Source of the DNA: an uncultured archaeon
Lineage (GTDB): Archaea > Iainarchaeota > Iainarchaeia > Iainarchaeales > 1-14-0-10-31-34
Direction: 5' to 3'
Length of the DNA stretch: 64,000 bases
Assembly: GCA_964608675.1 (NCBI GenBank)
Contig: CAZSOZ010000003.1
Coordinates: 32,001 to 96,000 of the forward strand
A program made the translations under genes and the position numbers. This document shows positions 1-37,490 of this stretch, one piece after another (position 1 is the stretch's first letter; each line of letters opens with the position of its first letter). The notes beneath the pieces were generated by a model, which saw nothing but the letters and a program-made list of their open reading frames with translations, did not search any database and was not told where the DNA came from.

Positions 1-2
1 AA

Positions 3-2457: not shown

Positions 2458-2511
2458 ACATTAAATTAAAGCATTAGTTATTTATATTAGTTTTCTCTTA
2501 TTTTTCCTGTT

Positions 2512-10291: not shown

Positions 10292-11287
10292 TTATAGAAT
10301 TAATGCAAAATTATATGAAAGAATTCCTATGGGAATTAAAATCAAAGAGTAAACTAAAAATTTTTTTATTTGTCCTTCTTGGTTTGCAATAAACAGAGAA
10401 GAAATTAATGCGTATTCTATTATGTAAATTTGGTTTGCAAGCATTGAAGCAGAAATTAATTCATTTCTTTGAATTTCGTTCATTCCTAATCCGAGTTCTT
10501 CTATTCCTATGAAATTCATTTCCTGTACAAATCCTACAATTAAACCTAAAAGCATTGGGACAATTATTCCTCCTGCCAGAATTAAAGTATATTTTTGTAT
10601 GAATAAAGATGCAATTCTTTCTTTTATGATTGACTGGGTTTCAAGAATGTCTTCTGCGCTTTCTTTGAATACTTTGTTCATTTCTGCTCCTGATTTGTTT
10701 CCTTGAATTAACAAATTTAGTGCACGGGAAATTATTCTGCTTTTGCTTCTTTCTGAAATCCCTTGCAATGCTTTTTCTATTGTTTTTCCTTTTTGTATTT
10801 CGTTGAATGCTTTCCTGAATTCTTTTGAAATCAGACCGTAATCTGATTTTGAAATGTATTCAATTATTTTTATGATTGGAGTGCCTTTTGGAAAAATGCT
10901 TGCCTGAAGCAAAACATCAGGAATTATTTCTTCTTTTTCTTTTTTGTTTTTTTCAAATAAAAACAAATGATAAAAATAATGAGTTATTCCAGGAATAATA
11001 AAGCAAAAGCAAAACAGAAGAAATGAATAAAAAAAATTTAATTCTTGTAAAGAAGAAAATCCAATTGAAATTAAACCAAAAGCAAAACCTGTTCCCAAAT
11101 ACCATTTAATTATTTGTTTTGAATTCAGTGTACAGTTGTTTTCTTTTAAAATCTGAGTGAATTCATTTATTTTTTTCCATTCAAAAAAATTAATTTGGTT
11201 TTCAGGATATTTTGTTTTGTTTTTTTGTTTTAGTTTTTTGAATTCTTTTCTTGTTTTTTGAATTATTTTTTTTATTTTTTTATTCAT
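10292..11287 (-). CDS. Type II secretion system F / TadC-like membrane platform protein
   Basis: YGLISKEFRKAFNEIQKGKTIEKAL T2SSF-type domain between TM helices. Confidence 0.85.
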   Translation of the reverse strand: MNKKIKKIIQKTRKEFKKLKQKNKTKYPENQINFFEWKKINEFTQILKENNCTLNSKQIIKWYLGTGFAFGLISIGFSSLQELNFFYSFLLFCFCFIIPGITHYFYHLFLFEKNKKEKEEIIPDVLLQASIFPKGTPIIKIIEYISKSDYGLISKEFRKAFNEIQKGKTIEKALQGISERSKSRIISRALNLLIQGNKSGAEMNKVFKESAEDILETQSIIKERIASLFIQKYTLILAGGIIVPMLLGLIVGFVQEMNFIGIEELGLGMNEIQRNELISASMLANQIYIIEYALISSLFIANQEGQIKKFLVYSLILIPIGILSYNFALIL

Positions 11288-11292
11288 TTTTT

Positions 11293-12078
11293 TTATTCCT
11301 TCATAAATTCAGGAGTTTTGCTTTTTATCAGCAGAAGTATTCCTGAATTAATTAATGGAAAAAGAATTACTGTGATGAACAGAATCTGGCTTGCAGTGAA
11401 ATCCAATTCCATAAAAGTGCTTCCAATTGAAACAAACGCCTGAAAAAAAGCAGGAATTATTGCAGACAAAACTATGAACACAACTGAATACATTGTCATT
11501 TTGGATGTAAATTCTTTTGATTCTGTTTTTTGTCTGGAAAGCAGTTCTTTTGCCAGCTGTTTTATTGGTTCTCCTTTTTCGTGGGAGCCATGTTCGTAAA
11601 TGCTTATAATTTGTGAAACACTTCTTTTCAGTATTTTTGAGTCAATTCTTTCGCTTAAATTAAATAATGCTTTTTGTATTGTTGCTCCGGCTTTTATTTC
11701 TTGAACGCATTTTTTTATTTCTTCTGAAAATTCTCCGTATTCGTCAGTTAAATTTTCAAGTATTTTTTCAAAGCTTAAATTAATGTTTAATTCAACTGAC
11801 ATTGCCATTAAAGCAAAAGGCAGATGCTTTTCAATTTTTTTTGCTTTTTTTTTCTTTAAAATAAACGGGATTTTTAATGCAACAAAAATTCCTGAAAGAA
11901 AAACAAGGATTCCTGAAAACAATGCAGTTGTAAGTTTTGTAAATGCAAAAACGCTTATCAATGAAATAATTCCTGCTGTAAGGGAATACTTTACTGCTTT
12001 TTTTGTGAATTCTTTTTCAGTTAAATTTATTCCTGCTTTTTTTAAGTTTTTTTCTTTTGCCAGAAAAATTTTTTTCAT
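11293..12078 (-). CDS. Type II secretion system F / TadB-like membrane platform protein
   Basis: LPFAL...YGEFSEEIKKCVQEIKAGATIQKAL T2SSF-type domain. Confidence 0.85.
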   Translation of the reverse strand: MKKIFLAKEKNLKKAGINLTEKEFTKKAVKYSLTAGIISLISVFAFTKLTTALFSGILVFLSGIFVALKIPFILKKKKAKKIEKHLPFALMAMSVELNINLSFEKILENLTDEYGEFSEEIKKCVQEIKAGATIQKALFNLSERIDSKILKRSVSQIISIYEHGSHEKGEPIKQLAKELLSRQKTESKEFTSKMTMYSVVFIVLSAIIPAFFQAFVSIGSTFMELDFTASQILFITVILFPLINSGILLLIKSKTPEFMKE

Positions 12079-12080
12079 TT

Positions 12081-13496
12081 TTAGTTCCCTATTTTTTTAT
12101 GAAATTCTTTCATTGAAATATTTTTTCCTTTCATTTTTTCCAGGATTTTTTTTCTTTTTTTTATTTCTTTTCTGAATTCTTTTTCTGTGAACCCAAAGCA
12201 TTGTTTGATTTTGTTTTTGATTCTGATGCTTTCGTTTTTTTTAATTAATTTTTTTCGTTTGAAGTCGAATTCAAATAAAATATTCAGTTTTGTTTTTGCG
12301 TTTTCTTCTGTTATTTCTGCTGCTTCAATTACGTGCCTTTCTTCTTTTTTGATTCCTTTTTTTAAGTCAATGGAATTCCATCTTTTTTGCACTAAAACCA
12401 AGTCAATGGAATTCAAATCCATTTCCATTAATCCTAAATTTTTCATTCTGGTAATAAATTCTTTTGCGCTTAATGCGTGAACTGTTGCATAACTTCCTTT
12501 TCCTTGTCCTGCAAGCAGTGTGTCAATGAATGCTTTTGCTTCTTTTTTTTCTCTTATTTCTCCTACAATTATTCTGTCAGGGCGCATTCTCAGAGTGTTT
12601 ATAATTAATTCCTGCATTTCTATTCCAAGGTTTTCTGCTGTATTCAGTTTTATTGAATGTTCTTGGGGAAGACAGATTTCAGGAGTTTCTTCTGTAATAA
12701 TAATTCTTTCTTTGCTGTCTGCAAAAGAAAACAAGGCATTCATGGTTGTTGTTTTTCCGCTTCCTGTGTTTCCTGCTATAACAATACTTGTGTCTGTCTG
12801 AAGTGCAAGCCATAAAAATGCAGTTAATTCAACTGAAAATGTTTTGTTTTCAATTAATTCAATCGGAGTAAACGGGTTTTCGTTGAATTTTCTTATAGTT
12901 ATGTTTGGAGTTTTGGATACAGGAAGCGTTATTGCATTAATTCTTTCTCCGTTAGGCAGAACTGAATTTAATTTTGGATTCTGCAAAGTAAGTCTTCTGC
13001 CAATGGTTCTTGACATTTTGTTTGCTAAATTCACTATTTCTTCTTGTGTCTGGTAAAGCAGATTAGTTTTAATCCAGCCAAAATTTTTTTTGAATACAAA
13101 AACATTTTTGTTTTTTCCGATTATGCTGATTTCTTCAATTGAATTGTCTTTCAGCAGGAAATCCATTGCTCCAAATCCAAACACAATTGATTCAACTGCT
13201 TTTTTTATGTAAAAATTTTGTTTTTCTTCAAGTTTAATCCATTCTTTTTCGCAGTATAAATTAATTTGTTTTTGAATTTCTTCTTTTTGAATTTTTTCTT
13301 CTTTTTGTATTTCTTCAGTTATTTTTTTTACTGCTTCTTTTTCTTGTTCAGAAAAACAAGGGATTTCAGTAATCAGATAATATAGTTCTCCTTCAAAATC
13401 TTGAATTAATTCTGTTTCATTTCGTTTTTCGATTATTTTTCTTTTCTTTTTTTCAGGAAAATTTTGAACAAAAAAACCTAATGCTGTTTCAGCCAT
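12081..13496 (-). CDS. CpaF/TadA/VirB11-family secretion ATPase
   Basis: ITIRKF motif, Walker A GNTGSGKT, EETPE Asp box, LRMRPDRIIVGE Walker B, His box TVHA. Confidence 0.93.
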   Translation of the reverse strand: MAETALGFFVQNFPEKKKRKIIEKRNETELIQDFEGELYYLITEIPCFSEQEKEAVKKITEEIQKEEKIQKEEIQKQINLYCEKEWIKLEEKQNFYIKKAVESIVFGFGAMDFLLKDNSIEEISIIGKNKNVFVFKKNFGWIKTNLLYQTQEEIVNLANKMSRTIGRRLTLQNPKLNSVLPNGERINAITLPVSKTPNITIRKFNENPFTPIELIENKTFSVELTAFLWLALQTDTSIVIAGNTGSGKTTTMNALFSFADSKERIIITEETPEICLPQEHSIKLNTAENLGIEMQELIINTLRMRPDRIIVGEIREKKEAKAFIDTLLAGQGKGSYATVHALSAKEFITRMKNLGLMEMDLNSIDLVLVQKRWNSIDLKKGIKKEERHVIEAAEITEENAKTKLNILFEFDFKRKKLIKKNESIRIKNKIKQCFGFTEKEFRKEIKKRKKILEKMKGKNISMKEFHKKIGN

Positions 13497-18439: not shown

Positions 18440-21400
18440 TTAATTTTCTCTGTATGCAAATCTTCCGCCTTCTTCTTCACTGTTTAAGGGATTAACTGTT
18501 TTTTTTGGTTTTTCGTTTTCTCTTAAAGTTCTTTTTTTCCTGAAGAAATTTTGGTTGTATGCTGATGCAAGTCCTGCTGGTTCATCTTCTTTTTTTGAAT
18601 CAAAATTTATTCTGTTTGATTTAACAAACATAATCACTGCAAGTAATGCAATAATTATTATTGCCCCTAAACCTATTGGCAGAAGTCCTTCCAATAAAAG
18701 AAATCCTGTTGCAGGAATAAAGTTTTCGTTTTCTATTTTTGTTTTTTGGTCTAATATTATTGGATTTCCTTCAAAGTTTATTTGGCTTTCAAGTATTTGA
18801 TCTGCTTTTTCTTTGGTTAATTTTTCGTTTAAAGAGTAAACAATTTCTTTGGTTTCTCCTGCTTCAAGTTCGGTTTCCCATTTTATTACTGGATCAGATT
18901 CTATTATTGTGAACTTGTAATTGCTTAAAATCATTTCTGCTGATTCAATTATTTCTTTTGGAATAACTTCTATTATTTGTATTTTTCTTGTTTTGTCCGC
19001 AGTGTTTTCAAATTTTAAAATAAAATTTTGCTGGTAGTATGTTTCTCCGTCATGAATTATTTCAATTAACTGCATTTCTCTGATTGGATTGACTTGTTCT
19101 TTTAATTTTTGGTTTTCGTTTTCCAGGTTTGCGCTTAAATTTATTTCAGTGCTGGAATTCATTGTTTCAATACTGTATTCTTTTATTTCGGTTTGAATGA
19201 ATTCATCAAACTTTTGTTTTGCTTTTTCTGCATCTTTAATGCATTCATTTAATTGGTTTTCTTGGATTTCTTGTTCTGCTTTTTTTAACAGGTTGTTTCC
19301 TTCAATTATTTTTTCGTCTGAAGAAAAATTTAAATTAAATTTTTTCCAGTAATTCATTAAATCTATTGCTTCGTTTTTGCTTTGTTTTGCTTTTTCTATT
19401 GTTTTTTCTGCAAGACTCAAATTTTGGTCTTTGTTTTGATCTGAATTTATTCTTAATGCTGTTAAATCTCTTTCAAGTTTTATTTTAATTGTTTTTGAAT
19501 TAATGTTTCCTGGTTTATCTCTTGCTAAAACTTTTAAATCGTATTCTCCGTTTTCGAGTCTGCTTGTATTCCATATTACTGTTTTGGTTCCGTTCAAAAT
19601 GTTTTGCTGAAAGCTGTCAATTGAATTAAATGATGTTTCAGAACTTTTTTTGTAAGTAAAGCTTACGAAAGCCAGAGTTGAAGTGTCTGAGATATATGCT
19701 TTTAGTGTTATGTTCATGTCTTTTAATGTTTCTCCTTCTTTTGGTTCTCTCCATGAAACTGAAGGCGCAATTGAATCCCCTGAATAATTATTGTTGTTGT
19801 TTTCTGAATCAGAGGGAATTGTTATTTGTCTTTCGTTGCTTAAACTTAAATCTGATTCCTGATCTAAATTGTCTGTTGCTGTAATTTTATAGTAGTATGT
19901 TGTTCCCTGGCTTCTTCCTGTGTCAGTATAATTTGTATTTGTTTTTCCGTCAATTGATGCAATTGAAGAATAGCTTTCGGAGTTTGTTTTTCTGTAAATT
20001 TTGTATCCTTTTATTCCTGAATTGGATGAAGAAGGATTGTCTGTTGATTCTGTCCAGCTTAAGTTTACTTCTCCGTTTGAGTTTGCTCCAGGAGAATTCA
20101 ATGAAGGAGCATTTGGAGCACTTTTATCTATTTTTATTGTTGCAGTGTTATGTGTTCCTTCATTTTCATGGGTGTCTGTTGCCCAGAATTCCAGTGAATT
20201 TTCTCCTTCTGATGAAACATCAAATGATTGAGGGTTTGTTGTTGTTTCGTATTCTGTTCCGTTTATTTTGTAGTATAATTTTTCAAAATCTAATGCAGTG
20301 CAGGTTAAAGTTATTGTTTGTGTTTGTTTGTGCCAGTTTGAATTTGCTCCCTGTATGCTGACAGCAGGTCCGGTTGTATCTATTGCTCTTGCGTTTGCAT
20401 CATTGGATGAATTTGAATCGTTTCCTGCATTATCAACTGCTTTCACATAATAAATATAGGTTGTATTGTGGTCTGTGTTTGTATCTGCATAAGAGTTTGT
20501 TGTTGAAGCCGCGTATTCTGTTGAATTCCTGTAAATTTTGTATTCTTTTATTCCTGATCCATTAATGTCAGTTGAAGCAGTCCAGTTTAAGTTAATTGTT
20601 AATCCGTTTGCTGTTGCATTTAAGTCTGCTGGAGTACTTGGATTAATTGAATCAATTTTAATTGAATAAGTTGTTGAGTTTTCATTTAAATCTGTGTTGT
20701 CTGTTGAATAAACTTCAATTGAATGAATTCCTTCTTCGCTTACATTCAGAGTGTTTCCTGTCATGCAGTTCCATCCTGTTTGATTTAAATTGTAGAATGT
20801 TTTATTGCACCCTGAACCTGAATCAGTGCATTCAAATAATATAGTTAATGGATTTAAGTTAGTCCATTCTTCGTCAGTGAATCCTGAAATAGTTGTTTTT
20901 GGAGGGGTTTCATCTAAAGGACTTGCGTTTGCTTGGTTTGATTCATTTGATAAATTGCCTGCATTATCAATTGCTTTAATTTTGTAGTAATAAGTTGTTC
21001 CGAATGAAATATTTGAATCTGTATAATTTGTTTCTGTTGTACTTGCAATTAAATTTCCTTCCCCTGCAATGAAGCCGTCTGTAATGCTTCTGTAAACATT
21101 GTATTCTTGTAAGTCATCTGAATTTGATGCATTCCAAATTAAATTTATTTGCATGTCTCCTGCTGTTGCATTTAAGTCTGCTGGATCCATAGGAGCATTT
21201 TTGTCTACTAAAAATTCTTCTGAGTATTTTGATGAATTCTGGTTTCCATCTGTGGTTTCAATAAAAATGTAATAGCTTCCATCTCTTATTCCTGTGGTAT
21301 TCCATGTATATGTGTTTGTTCCGTTTACTGTTGAGTGAACGGAAATTATTTCTGTTTTTTCTGTTGAATTAGTATCTTCATCATAATATATTGCTGAAGT

Positions 21401-21565
21401 CAGTGAATTATTTTCGTCGTATGAAACACTAAAAATAATATCAAAATCAGTTGTTAAAGAATTTATTTTTGTAGAAGCGTTTGGAGCTGAAATTTCTTCA
21501 ACTGTTAAAGCTGAAGCAGTTGAAACTAAAAAAACTGCAAGTAAAATAAAAAATTTTGAATTCAA
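18440..21565 (-). CDS. Surface glycoprotein with fibronectin type III / Ig-like repeats and C-terminal TM anchor
   Basis: TTG start after a GGGGG SD. Signal peptide, three FnIII-type units (Y.D....GTTYYYKI.A.D) and many N-x-S/T sequons. A 25-nt exact repeat occurs at 20609-20633 and 21161-21185. Confidence 0.88.
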   Translation of the reverse strand: MNSKFFILLAVFLVSTASALTVEEISAPNASTKINSLTTDFDIIFSVSYDENNSLTSAIYYDEDTNSTEKTEIISVHSTVNGTNTYTWNTTGIRDGSYYIFIETTDGNQNSSKYSEEFLVDKNAPMDPADLNATAGDMQINLIWNASNSDDLQEYNVYRSITDGFIAGEGNLIASTTETNYTDSNISFGTTYYYKIKAIDNAGNLSNESNQANASPLDETPPKTTISGFTDEEWTNLNPLTILFECTDSGSGCNKTFYNLNQTGWNCMTGNTLNVSEEGIHSIEVYSTDNTDLNENSTTYSIKIDSINPSTPADLNATANGLTINLNWTASTDINGSGIKEYKIYRNSTEYAASTTNSYADTNTDHNTTYIYYVKAVDNAGNDSNSSNDANARAIDTTGPAVSIQGANSNWHKQTQTITLTCTALDFEKLYYKINGTEYETTTNPQSFDVSSEGENSLEFWATDTHENEGTHNTATIKIDKSAPNAPSLNSPGANSNGEVNLSWTESTDNPSSSNSGIKGYKIYRKTNSESYSSIASIDGKTNTNYTDTGRSQGTTYYYKITATDNLDQESDLSLSNERQITIPSDSENNNNNYSGDSIAPSVSWREPKEGETLKDMNITLKAYISDTSTLAFVSFTYKKSSETSFNSIDSFQQNILNGTKTVIWNTSRLENGEYDLKVLARDKPGNINSKTIKIKLERDLTALRINSDQNKDQNLSLAEKTIEKAKQSKNEAIDLMNYWKKFNLNFSSDEKIIEGNNLLKKAEQEIQENQLNECIKDAEKAKQKFDEFIQTEIKEYSIETMNSSTEINLSANLENENQKLKEQVNPIREMQLIEIIHDGETYYQQNFILKFENTADKTRKIQIIEVIPKEIIESAEMILSNYKFTIIESDPVIKWETELEAGETKEIVYSLNEKLTKEKADQILESQINFEGNPIILDQKTKIENENFIPATGFLLLEGLLPIGLGAIIIIALLAVIMFVKSNRINFDSKKEDEPAGLASAYNQNFFRKKRTLRENEKPKKTVNPLNSEEEGGRFAYREN

Positions 21566-21656
21566 TTTATCCCCCCGGAACAAAAATTTTTGTTTTAAGT
21601 AAAGAATTAGTAGAATATTCTGATTGAAAATGTTTTTTAATGCTTTTATTTTTTTG

Positions 21657-27750: not shown

Positions 27751-28713
27751 TTATTGTTTTATTTTTTTTCTCCAGTAATCAAGCAAATCCTGCATTGTTT
27801 TTTCAAAGGGAATTTCAGGTTTCCATCCTGTTTGTTTTCTGAATTTAGTTGAATCTCCTAATAAAATTTGCACGTCTGACGGCCTTAATCTTTTGGGGTC
27901 TTGTTTTACTTCAAATTCTATTTTGCTTATTTTTTGGAGTATGTCAACTATTATTTGTATTTTGTATGCTTTTCCTGAAGCAATATTGTATACTTCTCCG
28001 GGAATTCCTTTTTCTGTTGCAAGCCAGTATGCTTTAACCATGTCTCTTACGTCTGTGTAATCTCTTTTTGCTTCAAGGTTTCCTACTTTTAATACAGGTT
28101 CTTGTTCTCCTGTTTCCATTAATGCAACTTGTTTTGCAAAATTGCTTGTAACGTATTGTTCTCCTCTTCTGGGGCCTTCATGATTAAAGGCTCTTGTTCT
28201 GATGATTTTTAATCCATAGCTTTTATTGTACTGGTAGCCAAGCAAATCCATTGCCACTTTGCTTACCCCATAAGGACTTAATGGCCTTAATGGATTGTCT
28301 TCTGTTATTGGAACTTCGTTTTCTTTTACTAATCCGTATTCTTCGCTTGAGCCTGCAATTTGAATTCTTATCTCTTTGTTGTGTTTTTTTATTGCTTCAA
28401 AAATATTTAATGGCCCGAAAATGTTTGCGTTCATTGTTTCTATTGGAGATTTCCATGAACTTGGCACAAAAGCCTGTGCAGCTAAATGAAAAATGTATTC
28501 AGGGCTGATTTCTTCTATTGTTTTGTCTACTCCATATGAATCAGTTATGTCGCATTCTACTAAATTTATTTTTTTGTTTATTTCTTTGATGTTTGATAAG
28601 TCTTCGTTTTTTCTGTAGGTTCCGTATATTTCTCCTAATTTGTTTTCCAGAATATATTCGCTTAAATGGCTTCCTACAAAACCATTTATTCCTGTTATTA
28701 ATACTTTTTTCAT
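27751..28713 (-). CDS. GDP-mannose 4,6-dehydratase / GDP-4-keto-6-deoxymannose reductase family SDR
   Basis: GINGFVG, SSEEYG, SPYGVSK, FNHEGPRR, GNLEAKRD. Lacks the GQDG typical of Gmd, so it may be Rmd-like. Confidence 0.85.
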   Translation of the reverse strand: MKKVLITGINGFVGSHLSEYILENKLGEIYGTYRKNEDLSNIKEINKKINLVECDITDSYGVDKTIEEISPEYIFHLAAQAFVPSSWKSPIETMNANIFGPLNIFEAIKKHNKEIRIQIAGSSEEYGLVKENEVPITEDNPLRPLSPYGVSKVAMDLLGYQYNKSYGLKIIRTRAFNHEGPRRGEQYVTSNFAKQVALMETGEQEPVLKVGNLEAKRDYTDVRDMVKAYWLATEKGIPGEVYNIASGKAYKIQIIVDILQKISKIEFEVKQDPKRLRPSDVQILLGDSTKFRKQTGWKPEIPFEKTMQDLLDYWRKKIKQ

Positions 28714-28731: not shown

Positions 28732-29577
28732 TTAAATTATTCCTTTCCATTTATTTTTTGCTTTTTCGTATCTTTCTATGGTGTCTGTGGGAAACCATTG
28801 CCCGTTGTAAACATATCCGTATAATTTTCCTTCTTCGCTTAATTTTGGAAAAACTGCTTCTTCAATTAAAGAGTATCCTTTTGGAAGCATGTCAATTACT
28901 TCGGGTTTTAGAATATATGTCCCTGAATTAATTAAATTTGATTCTGGTTTAACTGGTTTTTCTATGAATCTTTTTATTTGGTTTCCTTGCAATTCAATTA
29001 CTCCAAAGTTTTTGGGGTCTTTAACTGAAGTTAATGCAATTGTTGCATATGCATTATTTTTTTTGTGGAATGTGTGCATGTCATTCAGGTTAATGTTTGT
29101 TAGGTTGTCTCCGTTGAACATAAGAAATTCGTCAAGAAGCAAATTTTTTGCAAGCCTTAACGGCCCGCCTGTTCCTAATGGTTTTTTTTCTATAACGTAT
29201 TCAATGTTCATATCCCATTTTTCTCCTGTTCCAAAGTATTCTTTGATTTGTTCTGCTTTATATCCTAAAGCCATAACTGCGTTTTTTACATGATATTTTG
29301 AAAGCAGTTCAATTACGTATTCTAAAATAGGTTTTCCTTTTATTCCAATCATTGGTTTTGGCGTATTGTTTGTCAAAGGCCTTAATCTTGTTCCTTTTCC
29401 TCCTGCTAGAATAAATGCTGTTGACAAATCAGCGCTTTGAATTGCTTTTCTTACAAGATATTCGACTGCATGGCTTCGGTTTCTGATTTTTTGTCCGTCA
29501 ATTTTTTTGTCTATTGCGTTTAGAACTCCGGAATCAATATTAATAGTAACCCTTTCCTTTTCATTTTTTTTGTTCAT
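28732..29577 (-). CDS. NikR/CopG-type ribbon-helix-helix fused to an intact sugar-phosphate nucleotidyltransferase
   Basis: ERVTINID...IRNRSHAVEYLV RHH, then LAGGKGTRLRPLT..PKPM, LGTGG, NGD, FIEKP. Confidence 0.9.
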   Translation of the reverse strand: MNKKNEKERVTINIDSGVLNAIDKKIDGQKIRNRSHAVEYLVRKAIQSADLSTAFILAGGKGTRLRPLTNNTPKPMIGIKGKPILEYVIELLSKYHVKNAVMALGYKAEQIKEYFGTGEKWDMNIEYVIEKKPLGTGGPLRLAKNLLLDEFLMFNGDNLTNINLNDMHTFHKKNNAYATIALTSVKDPKNFGVIELQGNQIKRFIEKPVKPESNLINSGTYILKPEVIDMLPKGYSLIEEAVFPKLSEEGKLYGYVYNGQWFPTDTIERYEKAKNKWKGII

Positions 29578-29598
29578 AATTTTTCATATTATTTATGA
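29574..29598. promoter_or_regulatory. Candidate RHH operator TCATA-N5-TCATA-N5-TATGA (copy 1)
   Basis: Half-sites at 29574, 29584 and 29594. Same architecture as 31265-31289. Confidence 0.65.
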
Positions 29599-29652
29599 TT
29601 ACATTCCTTTTAAAAATTAACCGTTGTTTTATTTTTTTTAGGTTTTTTTTGC

Positions 29653-30465
29653 ATGCTTGGAATAAGTTCTAGTTATTTTGCTTCAAGGGGTTTTTCTGTT
29701 TATGATTCAGTTCAGCAGGCGTATTCTTTGGGTTTTAAGGCAATTGAATTAGGTGCAGCGCATTCTTTTGAAGAAAATTTAAATGAAACAATCCAAAAAA
29801 TTCATGACGATTTTGATGTGTTTTTTACTTTGCATGGATTGTTTCCCCCAAGAAAAGAAAAAGTCTGGTTTAATCCTTCTTTGGGTTTAACTCAAACAAA
29901 TAAAGAAATTATTGATTCTTTTTTTGTTTTTGCTGAACTGGCCGGCGCAAAACTTATTGGCTTTCATCCAGGTTTTTTGTTTGAAGTTTCTTATGTTGAA
30001 AAACAGGGTTTTGGGGAAACCAAAAATTTAAGGCCTTTGGAAAAAACTGTTTCCTGGAATAATTTGTTTGATGTAATGAATTATTTTAAAGAAAAAAACA
30101 GCAATAAATTTTTTCTTGCAATTGAAAATATTACTTCAACTGAAGAAAAAGCTTTGGTTTACGGAAAAAATTTTGAGAAAGTTTTCAGTAAATTTCCTTT
30201 TTTTGGTTTGCTTTTTGATTTAGGGCATTCTATTACAGACAAAACTTATTCTGATTTAATGGAATTCAAAGACAAAATACAGGAAATTCATTTGCATAAA
30301 CCTGAAGGAAAAAAAATCCATCTGCCTGTTTCTGAAAAAGACCTTGAACTGCTTAAGCCAATAAAGCAAATCAATTCAATTCCTGTTATAATTGAGCATT
30401 TTAAGGGAATAACAGAAAAACAAATCCTTGAAGAAAAAGAATTGTTTGAATCTTTTTTTGGTTAA
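29653..30465 (+). CDS. Xylose-isomerase-like / AP endonuclease 2 TIM-barrel (sugar phosphate isomerase/epimerase)
   Basis: LHG, GFHPG, IENI, FDLGHS, EIHLH and IIEH metal-binding motifs. Confidence 0.8.
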   Translation: MLGISSSYFASRGFSVYDSVQQAYSLGFKAIELGAAHSFEENLNETIQKIHDDFDVFFTLHGLFPPRKEKVWFNPSLGLTQTNKEIIDSFFVFAELAGAKLIGFHPGFLFEVSYVEKQGFGETKNLRPLEKTVSWNNLFDVMNYFKEKNSNKFFLAIENITSTEEKALVYGKNFEKVFSKFPFFGLLFDLGHSITDKTYSDLMEFKDKIQEIHLHKPEGKKIHLPVSEKDLELLKPIKQINSIPVIIEHFKGITEKQILEEKELFESFFG

Positions 30466-31268
30466 ATCATTTTTTTGGCTTTTTCGTAGTCTTTTTTTGT
30501 GTTAATGTTTAAGTAGATTCCTTGGAAAGGGTATCCTGTTAGAAGTCCTTTTTTTGCAAGTTTTGGGAATAAGTCGTTTGAAATGCTTTTCATGTTTCTT
30601 GAAATGTATTTGAATATTTCAGGTTCAAAAATATAGTAGCCTGCATTAATCAGATAACTTGAAGCTTCTGTTTTTGGTTTTTCTTTGAATTCAGTTATTT
30701 TTTTTCCTTGTAATACTGCTACTCCGTAATCTTTTGGGTTGTTTACGGTTGTTAATGCAATTGTTGCAGTTGATTTGTTTGCCTGATGAAATGAAAGCAT
30801 TTCATTTAAATTAAGACTGCATAATGTGTCTCCGTTTGCCACCAGAAAAGTGTCTTTTAGCTGGTTTTTCATTCTCAGCAAAGGCTCTATTGTTCCTGAT
30901 GCTTTTTCTAATTCAAGAAATTCTGCATCAATCTTTTTTTGGTTTATTTCTTGAATTATTTCTTCTTTTTCTGCATCCATGCTGACAGTAATTTTTCCTG
31001 CATTGAATTCCTGTAAATAGTTTATTACTCTTTCAATTAATGTTTTATTATTTAATTCCAGAAGAAACCTGCTTTTTTTTCCTGTTCCTTTAATGAAATC
31101 TTTTCCTCCTGCTAAAACAATTGAATTTTTTATTTTGTAGTCTGAAAGTGTTTTGGATAAAAGGTATTCTACTGCCTGGCTTCTGCTTCTGATGCTTAAT
31201 CCGTCCACTATTCTGTCTACCTGCTTTAATATATCGTCTTTTATTGTAATTGTAATTCGTTCTCTCAT
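30462..31268 (-). CDS. Ribbon-helix-helix fused to a degenerate nucleotidyltransferase (probable pseudoenzyme regulator)
   Basis: ERITITIK...IRSRSQAVEYLL RHH. LAGGKDFIKGTGKKSRFL replaces GGxGTR..PK; NGD and EKP are retained. Confidence 0.85.
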   Translation of the reverse strand: MRERITITIKDDILKQVDRIVDGLSIRSRSQAVEYLLSKTLSDYKIKNSIVLAGGKDFIKGTGKKSRFLLELNNKTLIERVINYLQEFNAGKITVSMDAEKEEIIQEINQKKIDAEFLELEKASGTIEPLLRMKNQLKDTFLVANGDTLCSLNLNEMLSFHQANKSTATIALTTVNNPKDYGVAVLQGKKITEFKEKPKTEASSYLINAGYYIFEPEIFKYISRNMKSISNDLFPKLAKKGLLTGYPFQGIYLNINTKKDYEKAKKMI

Positions 31269-31289
31269 ACTTTCTCATACTATGTATGA
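31265..31289. promoter_or_regulatory. Candidate RHH operator TCATA-N5-TCATA-N5-TATGA (copy 2)
   Basis: CTCATAC direct repeat plus CTCATAC-tat-GTATGAG inverted repeat over the start codon. Confidence 0.7.
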
Positions 31290-31359
31290 GTCATTCTTAT
31301 TTTAAAATCTTTTTATGCCATTTTACTTTATTGTTTATTTTTTTTGGGAAGTGATTTTT

Positions 31360-32625
31360 TTGAAGATTTCTGTTATTGGAACAGGTTATGTTGGACTAAT
31401 TTCAGGCACAGGTCTTGCTTTGAATGGCCATCAAATTGTCTGTATTGACAGCAATAAAGAAAAAGTTGATTTAATTAACAGTAAAGTTCCTCCTATTTTT
31501 GAAAAAGGCCTTAAGGAAGCCTTGAATAAAATTGTTCCTGACAGGCTTTCTGCTTCATCTGATTTAAAAAAAGCTGTTTTGGATTCTGATGTTTCTTTTG
31601 TTTGTGTTGGAACTCCGTGCAGTAAAGAAGGAAAATGCGATTTGACTGCAGTTGAATCTGTTGTAAAGGAAATTGCTTTGGCTTTAAAGGAAAAGACTTC
31701 TTTTCATACAATTGTAATTAAGAGCACTGTTGTTCCTTCCACTACTGAAAAACTTGTTTTGCCTTTGCTTGAAGAATTTTCAGGAAAAAAGCTGGGAGAG
31801 TTTGGCTTGTGTATGAATCCTGAAACTTTAAGGGAAGGTTTTGCTTTAGAGGATTTTTTGAATCCTGACAGAATTATTCTTGGAATTCAGGATGATAAAA
31901 CCAGAAAAGCAATGAAGGAAGTTTATTCTTCTTTTTCTTCTCCTAAATTTTTTTGCGGTTTTTCTGAAGCTGAAATGATTAAATATGCTTCCAATTCCTT
32001 GCTTGCAGCAAAAATTTCTTTTATTAATGAAATCGGAAACATCTGCAAGAAACTTGAAATAAATACTTATACTGTTGCTGAAGGAGTTGGATTAGACAAA
32101 AGGATTTCCCCTCATTTTTTGAATGCAGGAATAGGTTTTGGCGGAAGCTGTTTTCCTAAAGATGTTTCTGCTTTGATTGCAAAAGGAAATGAACTTAATA
32201 TTGAAACTTTTTTGTTGGATTCTGTAATGAAAGTGAATGATTTTCAGCCTAAAATTTTTTTGGATTTAATTAAATCTAAAACAGAATTAAAAGAAAAAAA
32301 AGTTGGTGTTTTGGGGCTTGCGTTTAAGGCAGGAACTGATGATATAAGGGAAAGTCGTTCTATTCCTGTAATTAAAATGCTTTTGGATGAAGAAGCAGAA
32401 ATTCTGGCTTTTGATCCTCAGGCTGAAGAAAACATGAAAAAAGAGTTTCCTGAAATTTCTTATTTTGATTCTGCTCAAAAAACAGTTGATGAAAGCGATT
32501 TAGTTTTGATTTTAACTGAATGGAGCGAATTTTCTTTTCTTGAATTTAAAAACAAGCCGGTTTTTGATGCAAGAAACATTTTTAAGAATAATAAACCCAA
32601 AAACTATGAAGGGCTGTCTTGGTGA
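31360..32625 (+). CDS. ugd: UDP-glucose 6-dehydrogenase
   Basis: GTGYVG, VGTP, KSTV, NPETLREG, GFGGSCFPKD, DDIRES. TTG start at 31360. Confidence 0.93.
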   Translation: MKISVIGTGYVGLISGTGLALNGHQIVCIDSNKEKVDLINSKVPPIFEKGLKEALNKIVPDRLSASSDLKKAVLDSDVSFVCVGTPCSKEGKCDLTAVESVVKEIALALKEKTSFHTIVIKSTVVPSTTEKLVLPLLEEFSGKKLGEFGLCMNPETLREGFALEDFLNPDRIILGIQDDKTRKAMKEVYSSFSSPKFFCGFSEAEMIKYASNSLLAAKISFINEIGNICKKLEINTYTVAEGVGLDKRISPHFLNAGIGFGGSCFPKDVSALIAKGNELNIETFLLDSVMKVNDFQPKIFLDLIKSKTELKEKKVGVLGLAFKAGTDDIRESRSIPVIKMLLDEEAEILAFDPQAEENMKKEFPEISYFDSAQKTVDESDLVLILTEWSEFSFLEFKNKPVFDARNIFKNNKPKNYEGLSW

Positions 32626-32632
32626 TGTTTGA

Positions 32633-33517
32633 ATGAGTGAAGAAATTAAACCTGTAAAAAAAGCTGTTATTCCTGCTGCAGGGCTTGGAACAAGGTTTCT
32701 GCCTGCAAGCAAGGCTGTTCCAAAGGAAATGTTTCCTGTTGTTGACAAGCCTGCAATCCAGTATATTATTGAAGAAGCAGTTGATTCAGGAATAGAAGAC
32801 ATTATTATTGTGACAGGAAAAGACAAAACTGCTATTGAAGATCATTTTGACAGAGTTCCTGAATTGTATTCAAAGCTTGAAGAAAAAGGAAAGAAAGACT
32901 GGCTTTTAATGCTTGAAAAAATTGATGGTTTGGCTGACATTCATTTTATCCGTCAGAAAGAGCCTTTGGGTTTGGGTCATGCAGTTTTGTGTGCCAAAAA
33001 ACATATTGGAAACGAGCCTTTTGCTGTGCTTCTTGGAGACGATTTAATTTTGTCTGATAAACCTGCTTTAAAGAAATTAATTAATATTTATGAAAAAAAT
33101 GATTCTTCTGTTTTGTGTGTTCAAAATGTTCCCAAAAAAGAAATTCCTTTGTATGGAGTAATTAAATACAAAAAAGTTAACGGACAAATTGTTGTTGAAA
33201 ACATGGTTGAAAAACCTCCTATAAGCAAGGCTCCTTCAAGTCTGGCTATTGTTGGAAGATATTTATTGAAGCCTGAAATTTTTGGGATTCTTGAAGAAAT
33301 TCCTTTTGGCAAAGGAAAGGAACTTCAGTTAACTGATGCTTTAAGGATTTTGAATGAAATTGACAAACTAATGGCTTATGAAATTGATGACGGAAAATGG
33401 CTTACTGTTGGAGACAAAACAAGTTATTTGAAGGCCAACTTAGAGTTTGCTTTAAAGAGAGCTGAAATGAGAAAGGACATTCTTTTGTTTATTAAGGAAA
33501 TAAACAAGAGAGTTTAA
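32633..33517 (+). CDS. galU: UTP-glucose-1-phosphate uridylyltransferase
   Basis: AAGLGTRFLPASKAVPKEM, RQKEPLGLGHAV, LLGDD, ELQLTDA. Confidence 0.95.
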   Translation: MSEEIKPVKKAVIPAAGLGTRFLPASKAVPKEMFPVVDKPAIQYIIEEAVDSGIEDIIIVTGKDKTAIEDHFDRVPELYSKLEEKGKKDWLLMLEKIDGLADIHFIRQKEPLGLGHAVLCAKKHIGNEPFAVLLGDDLILSDKPALKKLINIYEKNDSSVLCVQNVPKKEIPLYGVIKYKKVNGQIVVENMVEKPPISKAPSSLAIVGRYLLKPEIFGILEEIPFGKGKELQLTDALRILNEIDKLMAYEIDDGKWLTVGDKTSYLKANLEFALKRAEMRKDILLFIKEINKRV

Positions 33518-33532
33518 TTAAGGTTTTTTTTT

Positions 33533-34465
33533 ATGATTAAAGTTTTGGTTTCCGGTGGAGCAGGTTTTATTGGAAGCCATTTATGTGACAAATTAATTGA
33601 AGAAAAAAAAGAAGTTTTTTGTATTGACAGTCTTGTTTCAGGAACAAAAAAAAACATTCAGCATTTAATGAAAAACAGTAATTTTCATTTTTTAGAACAA
33701 GATGTAAACAAACTTGTTTTTGAAGAAAAAGTTAATGAAGTTTTTCATTTGGCTTCTTTGGCTTCTCCTGCTGACTATTTTTCTAAGCCAATTGACACAA
33801 TGCTTGTGGGTTCAATTGGAACAAAAAATTTGTTGGATTTGGCTTTGAAGAACAAAGCAAAATTTTTGTTTACTTCTACTTCTGAAGTTTACGGAGATCC
33901 TTTGGTTCATCCTCAAAAAGAATCTTATTGGGGGAACGTTAATCCGATTGGAAAGCGTTCTTGTTATGATGAATCAAAGCGTTTTTCTGAAGCTTTAATT
34001 AAGGCTTTTGAAAGAGAATTTGAATTCAAGGGAAAAATTGTAAGAATTTTTAATACTTACGGCTCAAGAATGAGAATAAACGATGGAAGAATTGTCCCTA
34101 ATTTTATTAATCAGGCTTTAAACAATAAGCCTTTGACTGTTTATGGTTCAGGAAAGCAGACAAGAAGTTTTTGTTTTGTTTCTGACATGATTGACGGAAT
34201 AATTAAAATGATGAATTCTAATTTAACTGGTCCAATTAATCTTGGAAACCCTGAAGAGTATTCTGTTTTGGAGTTTGCAGAAAAAATTAAGAAAGCAAGC
34301 GGAAAAGAACTTGAAATAAAATTTTTGTCTGCTTTGGAGGATGACCCTAAACAAAGAAAACCTGATATTTCTCTTGCAAGAAAAAAACTTAATTGGAATC
34401 CTGAATTTTCTTTGGATGAAGGATTAAAAATTACTTTGGATTATTTCCGTAAGGCTAATCTTTAA
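33533..34465 (+). CDS. UDP-glucuronate decarboxylase (UDP-xylose synthase)
   Basis: HLASLASP, STSEVYGDP..HPQ.E.YWGNVNPIG.RSCYDE.KR, RIFNTYG, DDPKQRKPDI. Confidence 0.92.
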   Translation: MIKVLVSGGAGFIGSHLCDKLIEEKKEVFCIDSLVSGTKKNIQHLMKNSNFHFLEQDVNKLVFEEKVNEVFHLASLASPADYFSKPIDTMLVGSIGTKNLLDLALKNKAKFLFTSTSEVYGDPLVHPQKESYWGNVNPIGKRSCYDESKRFSEALIKAFEREFEFKGKIVRIFNTYGSRMRINDGRIVPNFINQALNNKPLTVYGSGKQTRSFCFVSDMIDGIIKMMNSNLTGPINLGNPEEYSVLEFAEKIKKASGKELEIKFLSALEDDPKQRKPDISLARKKLNWNPEFSLDEGLKITLDYFRKANL

Positions 34466-34498
34466 TTGTGTTTTGTTAATTATTTTTATTGATTAAAA

Positions 34499-34963
34499 AT
34501 GATTGAAGGAATTAAAATAAAAAAATTAAAGAGAATTGATGACGAAAGAGGTTATTTAATGGAAATTTTAAGGAATGATGACGAAATTTTTGAGGAATTT
34601 GGTCAGGCTTACATTACTTGTGTTAAGCCTGATTACGTTAAAGGCTGGCATATGCATGAACATCAGACAGACCATTTTGTGTGTGTTAAAGGAAACGCAA
34701 GAGTTGTTTTGTGCGATAAAAGAGAAAACTCAAAAACTTTTAATGAAGTAAATGAATTCATTTTAGGAGAAAAAGAAGAAAACAGAATTTTATTAAAGAT
34801 TCCAAAAAAAGTAATGCATGGCTTTGAGTCTGCTGACAGCAAAGAAGCTTTGATTTTAAATTTTCCAACCAAAACATATAATTATGATGACCCTGATGAA
34901 ATAAGGCTTCCTTTTAATTCAAAAGAAATTGATTTTGAATGGAAAGCAAAAAAAGGCGGTTGA
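34499..34963 (+). CDS. rmlC: dTDP-4-dehydrorhamnose 3,5-epimerase (cupin)
   Basis: DERG, KGWHMH, HGF motifs. Precedes rmlB. Confidence 0.85.
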   Translation: MIEGIKIKKLKRIDDERGYLMEILRNDDEIFEEFGQAYITCVKPDYVKGWHMHEHQTDHFVCVKGNARVVLCDKRENSKTFNEVNEFILGEKEENRILLKIPKKVMHGFESADSKEALILNFPTKTYNYDDPDEIRLPFNSKEIDFEWKAKKGG

Positions 34964-35920
34964 ATGAATTTACTTGTAACAGGCGGAGCAGGATTCATTG
35001 GAAGCAATTTCATTAAACGCTTTATTGAATTTTATCCTGAAGCAAGAATAGTTAATTTAGATAAATTAACTTATGCCGGCAGGCTTGAAAACTTAAAAGA
35101 ACTTGAAGGCAACAAAAATTACAAGTTCATTAAAGGAGACATTTGCAATAAAAAAACAGTTCAAAAAGCAGTTAAAGGAATTGATATAATAATTAATTTT
35201 GCTGCTGAATCTCATGTTGACCGTTCAATTGTTTCTCCTGAAGACTTCATTAAAACAGATGTTTTTGGAACTTTTGTTTTATTAGAGGAAGCAAGAAAAA
35301 ATGATTTGCAGGTAATTCAGATTTCAACAGATGAAGTTTATGGAAGCATCGAAAACGGTTTTTTTACTGAAGAAAGCCCTTTAATGCCTTCTTCTCCTTA
35401 TTCTGCTTCCAAGGCTGGAGCAGACAGACTGTGTTTTTCTTATTTCAAAACTTATGGTTTGAATGTAAAAATAACCCGTTCTTCCAATAATTTTGGTTCA
35501 AACCAGTTTCCAGAAAAATTAATTCCTTTATTTATTACAAACCTTTTGGAAGAAAAAAAAGTTCCGGTGTATGGAGACGGAAAAAATGTAAGGGACTGGA
35601 TTTTTGTTAAAGACAACTGTGATGCAATAATTAAAGTAATGAATAAAGGAGAAAAAGGGGAAACTTATAATATTGGGGGCGAAAACGAAAAAACTAATTT
35701 AGAAATAACTGAATTCATTTTAAATGAATTAGGAAAAGGAAATGAATTCATTGAATTTGTTGAAGACAGAAAAGGACATGATTTAAGGTATGCTTTGGAT
35801 TGCACTAAAATAAAAAAACTTGGCTTTAAGCCAAATCATTCTTTTGATGATGCGTTAAAGGAAACAATTAATTGGTATAAAAATAATTTTTGGTGGTGGA
35901 AGCCATTAAAGAAAAACTGA
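34964..35920 (+). CDS. rmlB: dTDP-glucose 4,6-dehydratase
   Basis: DKLTYAG, AAESHVDRS, STDEVYG, YSASK, RKGHDLRY. Confidence 0.96.
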   Translation: MNLLVTGGAGFIGSNFIKRFIEFYPEARIVNLDKLTYAGRLENLKELEGNKNYKFIKGDICNKKTVQKAVKGIDIIINFAAESHVDRSIVSPEDFIKTDVFGTFVLLEEARKNDLQVIQISTDEVYGSIENGFFTEESPLMPSSPYSASKAGADRLCFSYFKTYGLNVKITRSSNNFGSNQFPEKLIPLFITNLLEEKKVPVYGDGKNVRDWIFVKDNCDAIIKVMNKGEKGETYNIGGENEKTNLEITEFILNELGKGNEFIEFVEDRKGHDLRYALDCTKIKKLGFKPNHSFDDALKETINWYKNNFWWWKPLKKN

Positions 35921-36771
35921 TTTTTTTAATCGGCAAAGGTTTTCTTGGAACAAAAATTGTTTCTGTTTTCAAAGAAAAAGGAATCAAAGTTATTACTGCA
36001 GGCCTTGAAGAAAAAAATGATTATTCTTTGGATATAACTGACGAACAATCTTTGATTTATTTGTTTAAAGACTTGAATCCTGATATTGTTTTGTTGCCTG
36101 CTGGAATAACAAATGTTGACTATTGTGAAGCAGAACAAGAAAAAGCAATAGAAGTCAATATTGAGGGAACAAGAAATGTTGTTGATGCATGCCGTGCTTT
36201 TAATTCAAAATTAGTTTTTTTTTCAACTGATTATGTTTTTGACGGAAAAAAAGGAAATTACACAGAAAAAAACAAAGTTAATCCAATTAATTTTTACGGC
36301 AAAACAAAAGTTAAAGGAGAACAGTTTGTTAAAGGATTAGAAGATTATTTGATTGCAAGAGTTTCTGCTTTATATGGCTTTAATTCAAATAAAGACAAAA
36401 ACACTTTTGTAAGATATGCAGTTAATGAATTAAAGCAGGGAAACCAAATTACTGCAGTTAAATTAATTAACTGCCCTACTTTAATTGATGATGTTGCTGA
36501 AGCAGTTTTTTTTATGCTTGAAAAAAATTTTTCTGGATTATTTCATGTTGCAGGATGTGATTCTTGCTCCAAATATGATTTGCTTAAAAAAATCTGCAAG
36601 GTTTACGGTTTTGATTCATGCCAAATAAAAGAAGTTTTGTCGATTCCTAAATGGAAAGCTCAAAGGCCTGAAAACACTTCTCTTGATACAACTAAAATTC
36701 AACTGCAAGGAATTAAAATGAGTTCGGTGGAAGAAGGTTTATTGAAAATGAAGGAGCAAATGAAATTATGA
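35893..36771 (+). CDS. rmlD: dTDP-4-dehydrorhamnose reductase
   Basis: TNVDYCE, STDYVFDG, YGKTK, RPENTSLD. Start (GTG) is approximate. Confidence 0.9.
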   Translation: MVEAIKEKLIFLIGKGFLGTKIVSVFKEKGIKVITAGLEEKNDYSLDITDEQSLIYLFKDLNPDIVLLPAGITNVDYCEAEQEKAIEVNIEGTRNVVDACRAFNSKLVFFSTDYVFDGKKGNYTEKNKVNPINFYGKTKVKGEQFVKGLEDYLIARVSALYGFNSNKDKNTFVRYAVNELKQGNQITAVKLINCPTLIDDVAEAVFFMLEKNFSGLFHVAGCDSCSKYDLLKKICKVYGFDSCQIKEVLSIPKWKAQRPENTSLDTTKIQLQGIKMSSVEEGLLKMKEQMKL

Positions 36772-37490
36772 AAGGAGTAATTCTTGCTGGAGGAACCGGT
36801 TCAAGGCTTTTTCCTTTAACTAAAATTACAAACAAGCATTTGCTTCCAGTTTATAGTAAACCTATGATTTATTTTCCTATTGAAACTTTGCTTGATGCAG
36901 GAATAAAAGATATTTTGATTGTTTCAGGAAAAGAGCATGCAGGAGATTTTTTGAAGCTTTTGGGTTCAGGGAAAGAATTTAATGCAAGATTTACTTATGA
37001 AGTGCAGGAGGAAGCCGGAGGAATAGCCCAAGCATTGTCTTTGGCTGAAGATTTTGCTGACAAAGAAAAAATTGTTGTTGTTTTAGGAGACAACATTATT
37101 GAAGATTCAATAAAGGAACAAGCAAAAGAATTCCAGAAAACTGATTCTGCTTTCATTTTTTTAAAAGAAGTCTCTGATGCACAAAGATTTGGTGTTCCTG
37201 AATTAAATGGAAAAAAAGTTCTTTCAATTGAAGAAAAACCCAAAAAACCTAAGAGCAGTTTTGCTGTCACAGGAATTTACATGTATCCTCCTGAAGTGTT
37301 TAAAGTAATCAAAAATTTGAAGCCGTCTGCAAGAGGAGAATTTGAAATAACTGATGTAAATAATTATTTTATTAGGAAAGGAAAACTTAAAGCAAATTTT
37401 TTGCAGGGTTTTTGGACTGATGCAGGAACATTTGAATCCCTGTTTCGTGCAACAAAACTAGTTAAAGAAAAACTTCATAACTCTGAGTAA
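36768..37490 (+). CDS. rmlA: Glucose-1-phosphate thymidylyltransferase (short form)
   Basis: LAGGTGSRLFPLT..NKHLLPVY.KPMI, LGDN, SARGEFEITD, WTDAGT. Confidence 0.93.
   Translation: MKGVILAGGTGSRLFPLTKITNKHLLPVYSKPMIYFPIETLLDAGIKDILIVSGKEHAGDFLKLLGSGKEFNARFTYEVQEEAGGIAQALSLAEDFADKEKIVVVLGDNIIEDSIKEQAKEFQKTDSAFIFLKEVSDAQRFGVPELNGKKVLSIEEKPKKPKSSFAVTGIYMYPPEVFKVIKNLKPSARGEFEITDVNNYFIRKGKLKANFLQGFWTDAGTFESLFRATKLVKEKLHNSE

Follow-up and report, generated by a model that had tools for sequence, protein, structure and literature searches.

What reads the matching arrays of short repeats that lie over the start codons of two neighbouring genes, P0001 and P0002, in a DPANN archaeon of low GC content (about 30%)? 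The DNA analysed here, called the window, is a stretch of 64,000 nucleotides (contig CAZSOZ010000003.1, positions 32,001 to 96,000), and each of the two genes encodes a ribbon-helix-helix (RHH) head fused to a nucleotidyltransferase domain. DPANN archaea have tiny genomes with few recognisable regulators, and we know of no DPANN regulator with a defined binding site. In this locus the regulator, its likely DNA word, the geometry of the array and the candidate targets are all legible from the sequence. An initial annotation had proposed that the arrays are the operators of the two fusion proteins, and this proposal is supported in silico by the conservation of the repeats before orthologues, by their occurrence with fusion genes only, by a NikR-like head and by a half-site of the NikR type. 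We consider it likely, on these sequence comparisons, that both arrays are cognate operators of NikR-like RHH heads fused to nucleotidyltransferase paralogues.

Half-site arrays in the window

The two arrays and the two genes are located as follows.

Site 1, 29574-29598, minus strand: sequence TCATAATTTTTCATATTATTTATGA, with half-sites at 29574-29578, 29584-29588 and 29594-29598
Site 2, 31265-31289, minus strand: sequence TCATACTTTCTCATACTATGTATGA, with half-sites at 31265-31269, 31275-31279 and 31285-31289
P0001, 28732-29577, minus strand: 281 aa, RHH head at residues ~8-47 (~29437-29556), NTP_transferase domain at residues 54-276
P0002, 30462-31268, minus strand: 268 aa, RHH head at residues ~3-42 (~31143-31262), NTP_transferase domain with a degenerate N-terminal signature

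A half-site is defined here as TCATA or its complement TATGA, and a strict pair as two exact half-sites with a 5-nt spacer. The annotated pattern TCATA-N5-TCATA-N5-TATGA was recovered at both positions and has only these 2 matches in the 64 kb; no third match was found in the window on allowing 1 mismatch, and none of 100 dinucleotide-preserving shuffles of the window had any match. Read in the direction of the gene, site 1 is TCATA (-21), N5, TATGA (-11), N5, TATGA (-1, with the ATG of P0001), and site 2 is arranged in the same way over the start codon of P0002, with its inner pair extended to the perfect palindrome TCATAC-TAT-GTATGA. As had been claimed, the half-sites lie one helical turn apart (their centres are spaced by 10 bp) and the first of them overlaps the start codon, CAT at 29575-29577 being the ATG of P0001 and CAT at 31266-31268 that of P0002. 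Strict pairs in any orientation number 4 in the window, all within sites 1 and 2, and no half-site pair with a spacer of 0-4 or 6-12 nt occurs in it. Single half-sites number 48 for TCATA and 72 for TATGA, and first-order Markov simulations give about 0.08 expected pairs of 5-nt spacing per orientation. One mismatch per pair adds only 3 matches in the window, 2 inside open reading frames (ORFs) and 1 that extends site 2 as follows.

TCTTA, 31295-31299, no strand assigned: possible degenerate fourth half-site, weak, from a one-mismatch pair at 31285, one turn closer to the TATA-like box

Neither the exact nor the one-mismatch pair scan gave further regulon members in the window, and the pair is present before 0 of its other 27 promoter-bearing genes.

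Conservation before close orthologues

A contig scan of genomes gave 80 loci, 24 with the head-plus-enzyme fusion and 56 without the head. In the two loci closest to the window, L001 and L002, the gene arrangement is the same, with 84% and 69% identity for the P0001 orthologue and 76% and 64% for that of P0002, and their 4 promoters together with the 2 of the window make a footprint set of 6. All three P0001-type promoters (window, L001 and L002) have TCATA-N5-TATGA-N5-TATGA at -21/-11/-1 with differing spacers. In the P0002-type promoters, the half-site at -21 is TCATA, GCATA or TAATA, the one at -11 is TATGA and the one at -1 is TATGA or TATGC. An exact-match scan scored half-sites at -21/-11/-1 in 5 of the 6 promoters; L001_g2 has them at the same places only as one-mismatch versions, and L002_g2 is without the exact distal half-site. 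The majority base is common to 5.75 of 6 promoters in the half-site columns, to 5.0 of 6 in the TATA columns and to 3.57 of 6 elsewhere. Between the two window promoters the identity is 100% in the half-sites, 78% in the TATA-like box and 37% elsewhere, the proteins also being 37% identical. Therefore, the half-sites stand out from a diverged background, and in L001 and L002 they are held in place while the surrounding bases drift. The earlier statement that the spacers have diverged holds for the upstream regions outside half-sites and TATA-like box, with the 37% just given, but less so for the spacers themselves, in which 6 of 10 bases are equal between sites 1 and 2.

Occurrence before distant orthologues

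The comparison also covers 27 further upstream regions, namely those of the 24 loci and of the second paralogues in L001, L002 and L010, with 120 nt plus 5 taken for each. A 5-nt-spaced pair is present within 120 nt in 11 of the 27 by the strict definition and in 13 with TCAYA, whereas in shuffles the number of such regions averaged 0.06 and never exceeded 2. Over their other 195,861 nt, the 24 fusion loci contain only two strict pairs, in L015 (-192) and L016 (-237), both upstream of the fusion gene and each then followed by a TATA-like box. In the 56 loci that lack the fusion (441,111 nt in all; 11 archaeal with visible upstream sequence) no strict pair was found, and the relaxed pairs number 3. 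Over about 640 kb of loci, 16 of the 16 strict pairs thus lie upstream of fusion genes, all within 240 nt, and the conservation before orthologues on which the initial annotation had staked its operators is seen in 11-13 of the 27 regions, with 0 strict pairs in the non-fusion loci.

Two of the fusion loci with the array belong to candidate-phyla (Patescibacteria-type) bacteria, and of these L027 has the three-arrow layout at -62 (2391-2415) and L031 a pair at -111 (3887-3901). As the fusion and the array are both present in L027 and L031, gene and operator seem to have moved together between domains. No pair was found before the fusion gene in L003, L005, L006, L009, L010, L010b, L011, L012, L026 and L028; in L001b only one-mismatch versions are present, and L008 has TCATA-N15-TCATA instead.

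It may be added that the repeat-plus-TATA module lies 190-240 nt ahead of the ORF in L015 (49-240) and L016 (3761-3997). The gap in L015 contains three tandem copies of a ~20-nt hairpin-like unit (CAAAAATCAAAGATTTTTG-like) and may represent either an inserted element or a long leader.

The neighbours of the fusion gene in the distant loci are genes of sugar phosphate metabolism. A phosphoglucomutase/phosphomannomutase gene lies downstream in 10 loci (L004, L006, L007, L009-L013, L018 and L030), and the fusion gene is divergent from a glpX-type fructose-1,6-bisphosphatase (FBPase) gene in L005, L016, L017, L018 and L021, from a phosphofructokinase (PFK) gene in L019 and from a PPDK-like gene in L030. 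The TCATA repeats are located in the intergenic region shared with the divergent glpX-type FBPase, PFK or PPDK-like gene. This neighbourhood suggests that hexose-phosphate supply is coupled to sugar-nucleotide synthesis.

The RHH head and its relation to NikR

P0001 and P0002 are paralogues of 37% protein identity lying 1.7 kb apart, both with a PF00483 NTP_transferase domain behind a head of ~45 residues (Pfam). A Pfam scan of the full-length proteins missed the RHH domain at E <= 0.01, and the isolated heads and a family profile were needed. Taken alone, the P0002 head scores 21.2 bits against Pfam RHH_1 (cut-off 20.5), and the P0001 head scores 15.6 bits, which is under this cut-off and needed the profile search for a solid call. 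The head profile was built from an alignment of 29 heads, 28 of which match RHH_1 at E <= 0.1. Its best solved relative is E. coli NikR (1q5v, E 1.7e-7), with further matches to P. horikoshii NikR (5e-4) and CopG (0.015), and the strand RVTITLD and the helix start NRS.AI are common to the heads and E. coli NikR. Also, the NCBIfam NikR model matches P0002 at residues 3-47 only (22.6 bits against a cut-off of 83). The matches to RHH_1 and to the NikR and CopG structures bear out the annotation of both genes as RHH fusions. No other RHH head of the same type was found among 947 six-frame ORFs of the window or, outside the fusions, in the 80 loci.

On co-folding, two copies of the head gave a score of 0.45 against 0.00 for the best of 3 controls, with runs agreeing in at least 89% of the contacts and a partner pLDDT (predicted local distance difference test) of at least 74. 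The predicted dimer forms an antiparallel ribbon, as in RHH dimers, with residue 11 opposite 11 and 13 opposite 9. The co-folding mark is attained by 20 of the 30 proteins whose solved structure is a pair and by 1 of the 23 that were solved as single chains; as solved RHH dimers exist, the pass may reflect likeness only. The AlphaFold monomer of P0001 has a pLDDT of 50-69 in the head with the strand unformed, which is expected since an RHH domain needs its partner chain and is uninformative on the fold. A structure search with P0001 gave no match for the head, the enzyme domain having dominated it.

The extended half-site derived from 53 half-sites is A(27/53)-TCA[T/C]A-C(32/53), that is ATCATAC. 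The E. coli NikR operator is given as GTATGA-N16-TCATAC (PMC7055735) and the enterobacterial NikR consensus as GTATGAT-N13/14-ATCATAC (PMC545781), so that the extended half-site equals the enterobacterial NikR half-site. With a NikR strand in the head and ATCATAC in the DNA, a NikR-type head adjoins a NikR half-site. We take Arg3, Thr5 and Thr7 to be the base-reading residues of NikR, and these are aligned with P0001 positions 9, 11 and 13, at which P0001 has R-T-N and P0002 has R-T-T. Among genes with an R-T-T/N strand 17 of 22 have a pair within 240 nt, and among those with other strands 0 of 7 (Fisher p = 5e-4, for strand classes set after seeing the data and with no ancestry correction). 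The 7 altered strands are Q-T-T, K-T-T, R-S-T three times, K-S-T and E-R-N. Loci L010 (3950-3992) and L012 (215-255), which have an R-S-T strand (RISLTID) and no TCATA pair, carry the palindrome GTATTAC-N3-GTAATAC near the start. This palindrome resembles the delta-proteobacterial NikR half-site, GTGTTAC/GTAACAC (PMC545781).

The enzyme domain

The NTP_transferase domain of P0001 (153 bits to PF00483; AlphaFold mean pLDDT 86.9) has the signature G-x-G-T-R-L-x-P-x-T...P-K (GGKGTRLRPLTNNTPKP), with GGKGTRLRPLT..PKP intact. Its nearest structural matches are GDP-mannose pyrophosphorylases (7d72_E, E 1e-23, 34% identity), followed by MurU and RmlA, and P0001 is predicted to be a sugar-1-phosphate nucleotidyltransferase. 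The domain of P0002 (86 bits) departs from the signature, reading GGKD--FIKGTGKKSRF and having GTIEP in place of GTGGP; the loss, which includes a 2-aa deletion, is shared by its orthologue in L001 (2176-2982). The L002 orthologue (1674-2489) has an intermediate signature that retains GGKDSRMFPLTKNKPK, and in the second paralogue of L010 (2897-3667) the signature is decayed further still. Given the lost catalytic signature, P0002 may be a sensor rather than an enzyme and possibly catalytically dead, like GMPPA beside GMPPB.

Promoter geometry

The TATA-like boxes next to the arrays are the following.

TTTTAAAA, 29608-29615, no strand assigned: TATA-like box at -38..-31 from the P0001 ATG and at -45 from the TIM-barrel ATG, 9 nt beyond site 1
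TTTTAAAA, 31300-31307, no strand assigned: TATA-like box at -39..-32 from the P0002 ATG, 10 nt beyond site 2

The distances of 9 and 10 nt agree with the earlier placement of a TATA-like box about 10 nt past each array, and the octamer is palindromic, so that the direction of the box is not fixed by its sequence. In the window clade all 6 promoters have the box at -37 to -39, and the first half-site begins 16-18 nt downstream of the box start in the 5 that the exact-match scan scored, the array being placed between the TATA-like box (-38/-39) and the ATG with half-sites from -21 to +4. Other window genes have TATA-like boxes at -31 to -45. The usual archaeal distance from the TATA centre to the transcript start is about 26-27 nt, which predicts a start near -8, within the central half-site, and a very short leader. 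As the array covers this predicted start, its occupancy would block the polymerase. It may be noted that a 62-aa ORF (31090-31278, minus strand) has its ATG within the central half-site of site 2 and is read in another frame than P0002, and that a comparable 8-codon frame is present at site 1. A transcription start near -8 would leave both small frames out of the mRNA, and they are probably meaningless.

The geometry is different in the 8 Woese/Nano-type loci, where the proximal half-site begins 17-19 nt upstream of the TATA-like box, two direct repeats stop 12-14 nt ahead of a canonical TTTAWATA box, and this box is ~22 nt from the ATG. In each of the two groups the distance between array and box is fixed, which counts in favour of the operator reading. 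For such an upstream array activation and occlusion of the B recognition element (BRE) fit equally well. The same may apply to the divergent genes of the window, which likewise have the array ahead of the palindromic box. Two half-site pairs in helical phase are present in L018 (3899-3953, 40 nt apart) and L030 (3907-3951, 30 nt apart), which hints at looping or extended cooperative binding.

Proposed mechanism and its weighing

For the window clade autorepression is the sign of regulation towards which we lean, from the position of the array. The RHH heads of two chains would form a two-stranded ribbon, whose side chains 9, 11 and 13 (P0001 numbering) would read one ATCATAC-type half-site. 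Three such dimers, one helical turn apart, would lie on the same face of the DNA and cover it up to the start codon, beginning 17 nt past the start of the TATA-like box and including the predicted transcript start at about -8. The occupied array (-21 to +4) would exclude the polymerase and the gene would shut itself off, with the enzyme domain probably tuning occupancy through the levels of sugar-1-phosphate, nucleoside triphosphate (NTP) or nucleoside diphosphate (NDP)-sugar, as in enzyme-regulators. We also infer cross-talk between P0001 and P0002.

Several observations weigh against this reading, the post hoc strand classes mentioned above being one of them. A 5-nt-spaced pair is absent from 14 of the 27 orthologue regions even with TCAYA (12 if the pairs at -192 and -237 are counted), the P0002 orthologues have a distal half-site with one mismatch (GCATA or TAATA), and L001, at 84% protein identity, is too near the window to be independent evidence. 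Also, 3 of the 5 letters of the ATG half-site are dictated by the start codon, and TATGA is the start context in 9 of 61 window genes. The octamer TTTTAAAA has 18 copies in the window and its assignment as a TATA box is by sequence alone, and the position of the array upstream of the box in other clades makes repression not generalisable.

Alternative explanations

The arrays may be true operators whose main role is the control of the divergent genes, or activation, which we consider possible but rather unlikely. Both arrays do lie in divergent promoter regions, as annotated, with the following genes on the other side.

29653-30465, plus strand: xylose-isomerase-like TIM barrel, divergent from P0001, possible second target of site 1, with the same neighbour in L001
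31360-37490, plus strand: sugar-nucleotide operon (the UDP-glucose dehydrogenase-rml run), divergent from P0002

Seen from these genes the array is just upstream of the shared palindromic box, as it is in the Woese/Nano-type relatives (17-19 nt, 8 loci), and the window half-site nearest to the box begins 14-15 nt before it when read towards the divergent genes. The relatives also have their array in intergenic regions divergent with the glpX-type FBPase (L016, L017, L018 and L021), PFK (L019) or PPDK-like (L030) genes. However, in the window clade the array is locked to the ATG of the fusion gene (-21/-11/-1, 5 of 6 by exact match), whereas its distance to the divergent start varies over 75-92 nt.

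It is improbable that what binds the sites is some other factor whose gene lies beyond the window, for instance a true NikR or a stand-alone RHH protein of small size. The half-site does equal that of enterobacterial NikR, and our view is limited to 64 kb of the genome; but NikR operators have TATGA...TCATA with N13-16, and here the outer pair is TCATA-N15-TATGA and neighbouring half-sites are 10 bp apart. Such a factor is also at odds with an array that travels with the fusion across archaeal lineages and the candidate-phyla bacteria of L027 and L031 and is absent from non-fusion loci, with the lack of nickel genes near the arrays, and with the lack of any other such RHH protein in the window or the loci.

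That no regulator is involved, the words being duplication leftovers or core promoter or start-context elements, is very improbable. In its favour, the paralogues are only 1.7 kb apart with 6 of 10 spacer bases identical, and TATGA is common as a start context (9 of 61 genes). Against it, the duplication is older than the L002 split (both paralogues being present in L002), the half-sites are 100% identical against 37% for the proteins and the flanks, and the pair precedes 0 of 27 other promoter-bearing window genes. These words, still 5 nt apart, are also found at different positions before distant orthologues, and the rest of the ~640 kb of loci lacks such pairs.

Comparison with known systems

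For the reading of the arrays as cognate operators, NikR (PDB 1q5v, 2hzv, 2bj1) is the nearest parallel. Among solved structures it is the closest to the head; it shares the strand RVTITLD and the half-site GTATGA(T)/(A)TCATAC, and in its design, too, an RHH head at the N-terminus is followed by a C-terminal domain that could govern DNA affinity. In NikR, however, the C-terminal domain is a nickel-binding (ACT-like) tetramerisation domain, where the fusions have PF00483 NTP_transferase; the operator has two inverted half-sites with N13-16, as against half-sites 10 bp apart (N5) in mixed orientation; and the genes controlled are for nickel uptake, as against sugar-nucleotide genes here. Lacking both the nickel domain and the N16 operator, the fusion proteins are not NikR.

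The omega protein of pSM19035 is described (PMC9499535) as binding with one RHH dimer per non-palindromic repeat WATCACW, weakly to a single repeat and strongly to direct or inverted pairs, with repeats that overlap promoters. Omega is a precedent for half-sites of mixed orientation that each take one dimer. The mixed arrow pattern and the core ATCAYA of our arrays are similar to those of omega/ParB of pSM19035, whereas the omega repeats are contiguous with a 7-bp period, against 10 bp here, and omega is a small stand-alone protein. No sequence relation of omega to the fusion head was detected in the head profile search. Arc, MetJ and CopG are comparable RHH systems besides omega.

A DNA-binding head on a metabolic enzyme, with autoregulation, is found in PutA, BirA and NadR. 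In PutA the head is an RHH at the N-terminus and the region of action is intergenic and divergent; NadR has a nucleotidyltransferase among its domains. All three are bacterial and differ from the fusions in enzyme and half-site; no homology beyond the RHH fold is implied. By analogy, the fusions may work like the known RHH autoregulators and these enzyme-repressors. GMPPA/GMPPB (PDB 7d72), which the enzyme domain of P0001 matches best in structure, similarly combines an active enzyme with a paralogue of lost catalytic motifs, and GMPPA has a sensor role. Unlike the fusions, GMPPA and GMPPB have no DNA-binding head and their regulation is allosteric, not transcriptional. No description of an RHH-sugar-nucleotidyltransferase fusion or of its operator was found in the literature searched, which gave only toxin-antitoxin and CdrS/CdrL papers.

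A wider hypothesis, which we put forward only tentatively, is that of a regulator-enzyme family in DPANN archaea and candidate-phyla bacteria, with a NikR-type head on a GDP-mannose-pyrophosphorylase-like enzyme. Sugar-nucleotide status would set the expression of its own operon and of hexose-phosphate (glpX FBPase, PFK) and glycan genes, a shift of the array past the TATA box would alter the logic, and P0002 would be a pure sensor-repressor. If true, P0002 would be the transcriptional counterpart of GMPPA, and the upstream-to-downstream move of the array between clades would flip or change the regulatory logic. The relocated array serves as a natural experiment on how the position of a site relative to the TATA box sets archaeal regulatory logic. 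A NikR-type head that has been moved to a new sensor domain and has kept its DNA specificity would be a clean case of modular evolution of regulators.

Genomic surroundings

The candidate targets are surface-glycan and sugar-nucleotide genes beside an AglB-type N-glycosylation island. By Pfam, the operon at 31360-37490 (plus strand) encodes a UDP-glucose dehydrogenase, a nucleotidyltransferase, an epimerase/dehydratase, RmlC-, RmlB- and RmlD-like proteins and an RmlA-like second nucleotidyltransferase. The start of the UDP-glucose dehydrogenase is most likely the TTG at 31360 (MKISVIGTGYVG) rather than the ATG at 31315, as residue 17 of the 31315 ORF is the first one covered by the Pfam match; the extra 15 residues of this ORF are hydrophobic filler. 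On the other side, P0001 is followed by one further gene.

27751-28713, minus strand: NDP-sugar 4,6-dehydratase-like gene, 19 nt downstream of P0001, which also follows in L001 and L002

This gene is probably co-transcribed with P0001. From ~26 kb to its end the window is a glycan-synthesis island, with many glycosyltransferases, Alg13/14-like genes and an AglB/STT3 oligosaccharyltransferase.

Pfam gives no match at E <= 1e-6 for a 1490-aa ORF of the window (3053-7525) or for several of its neighbours (1-3048 and 7526-8401). Nearby, a type IV pilus/archaellum-like ATPase gene is present with two T2SSF-like membrane genes at 10292-13496, and a fn3 protein of 1047 aa is encoded at 18440-21583.

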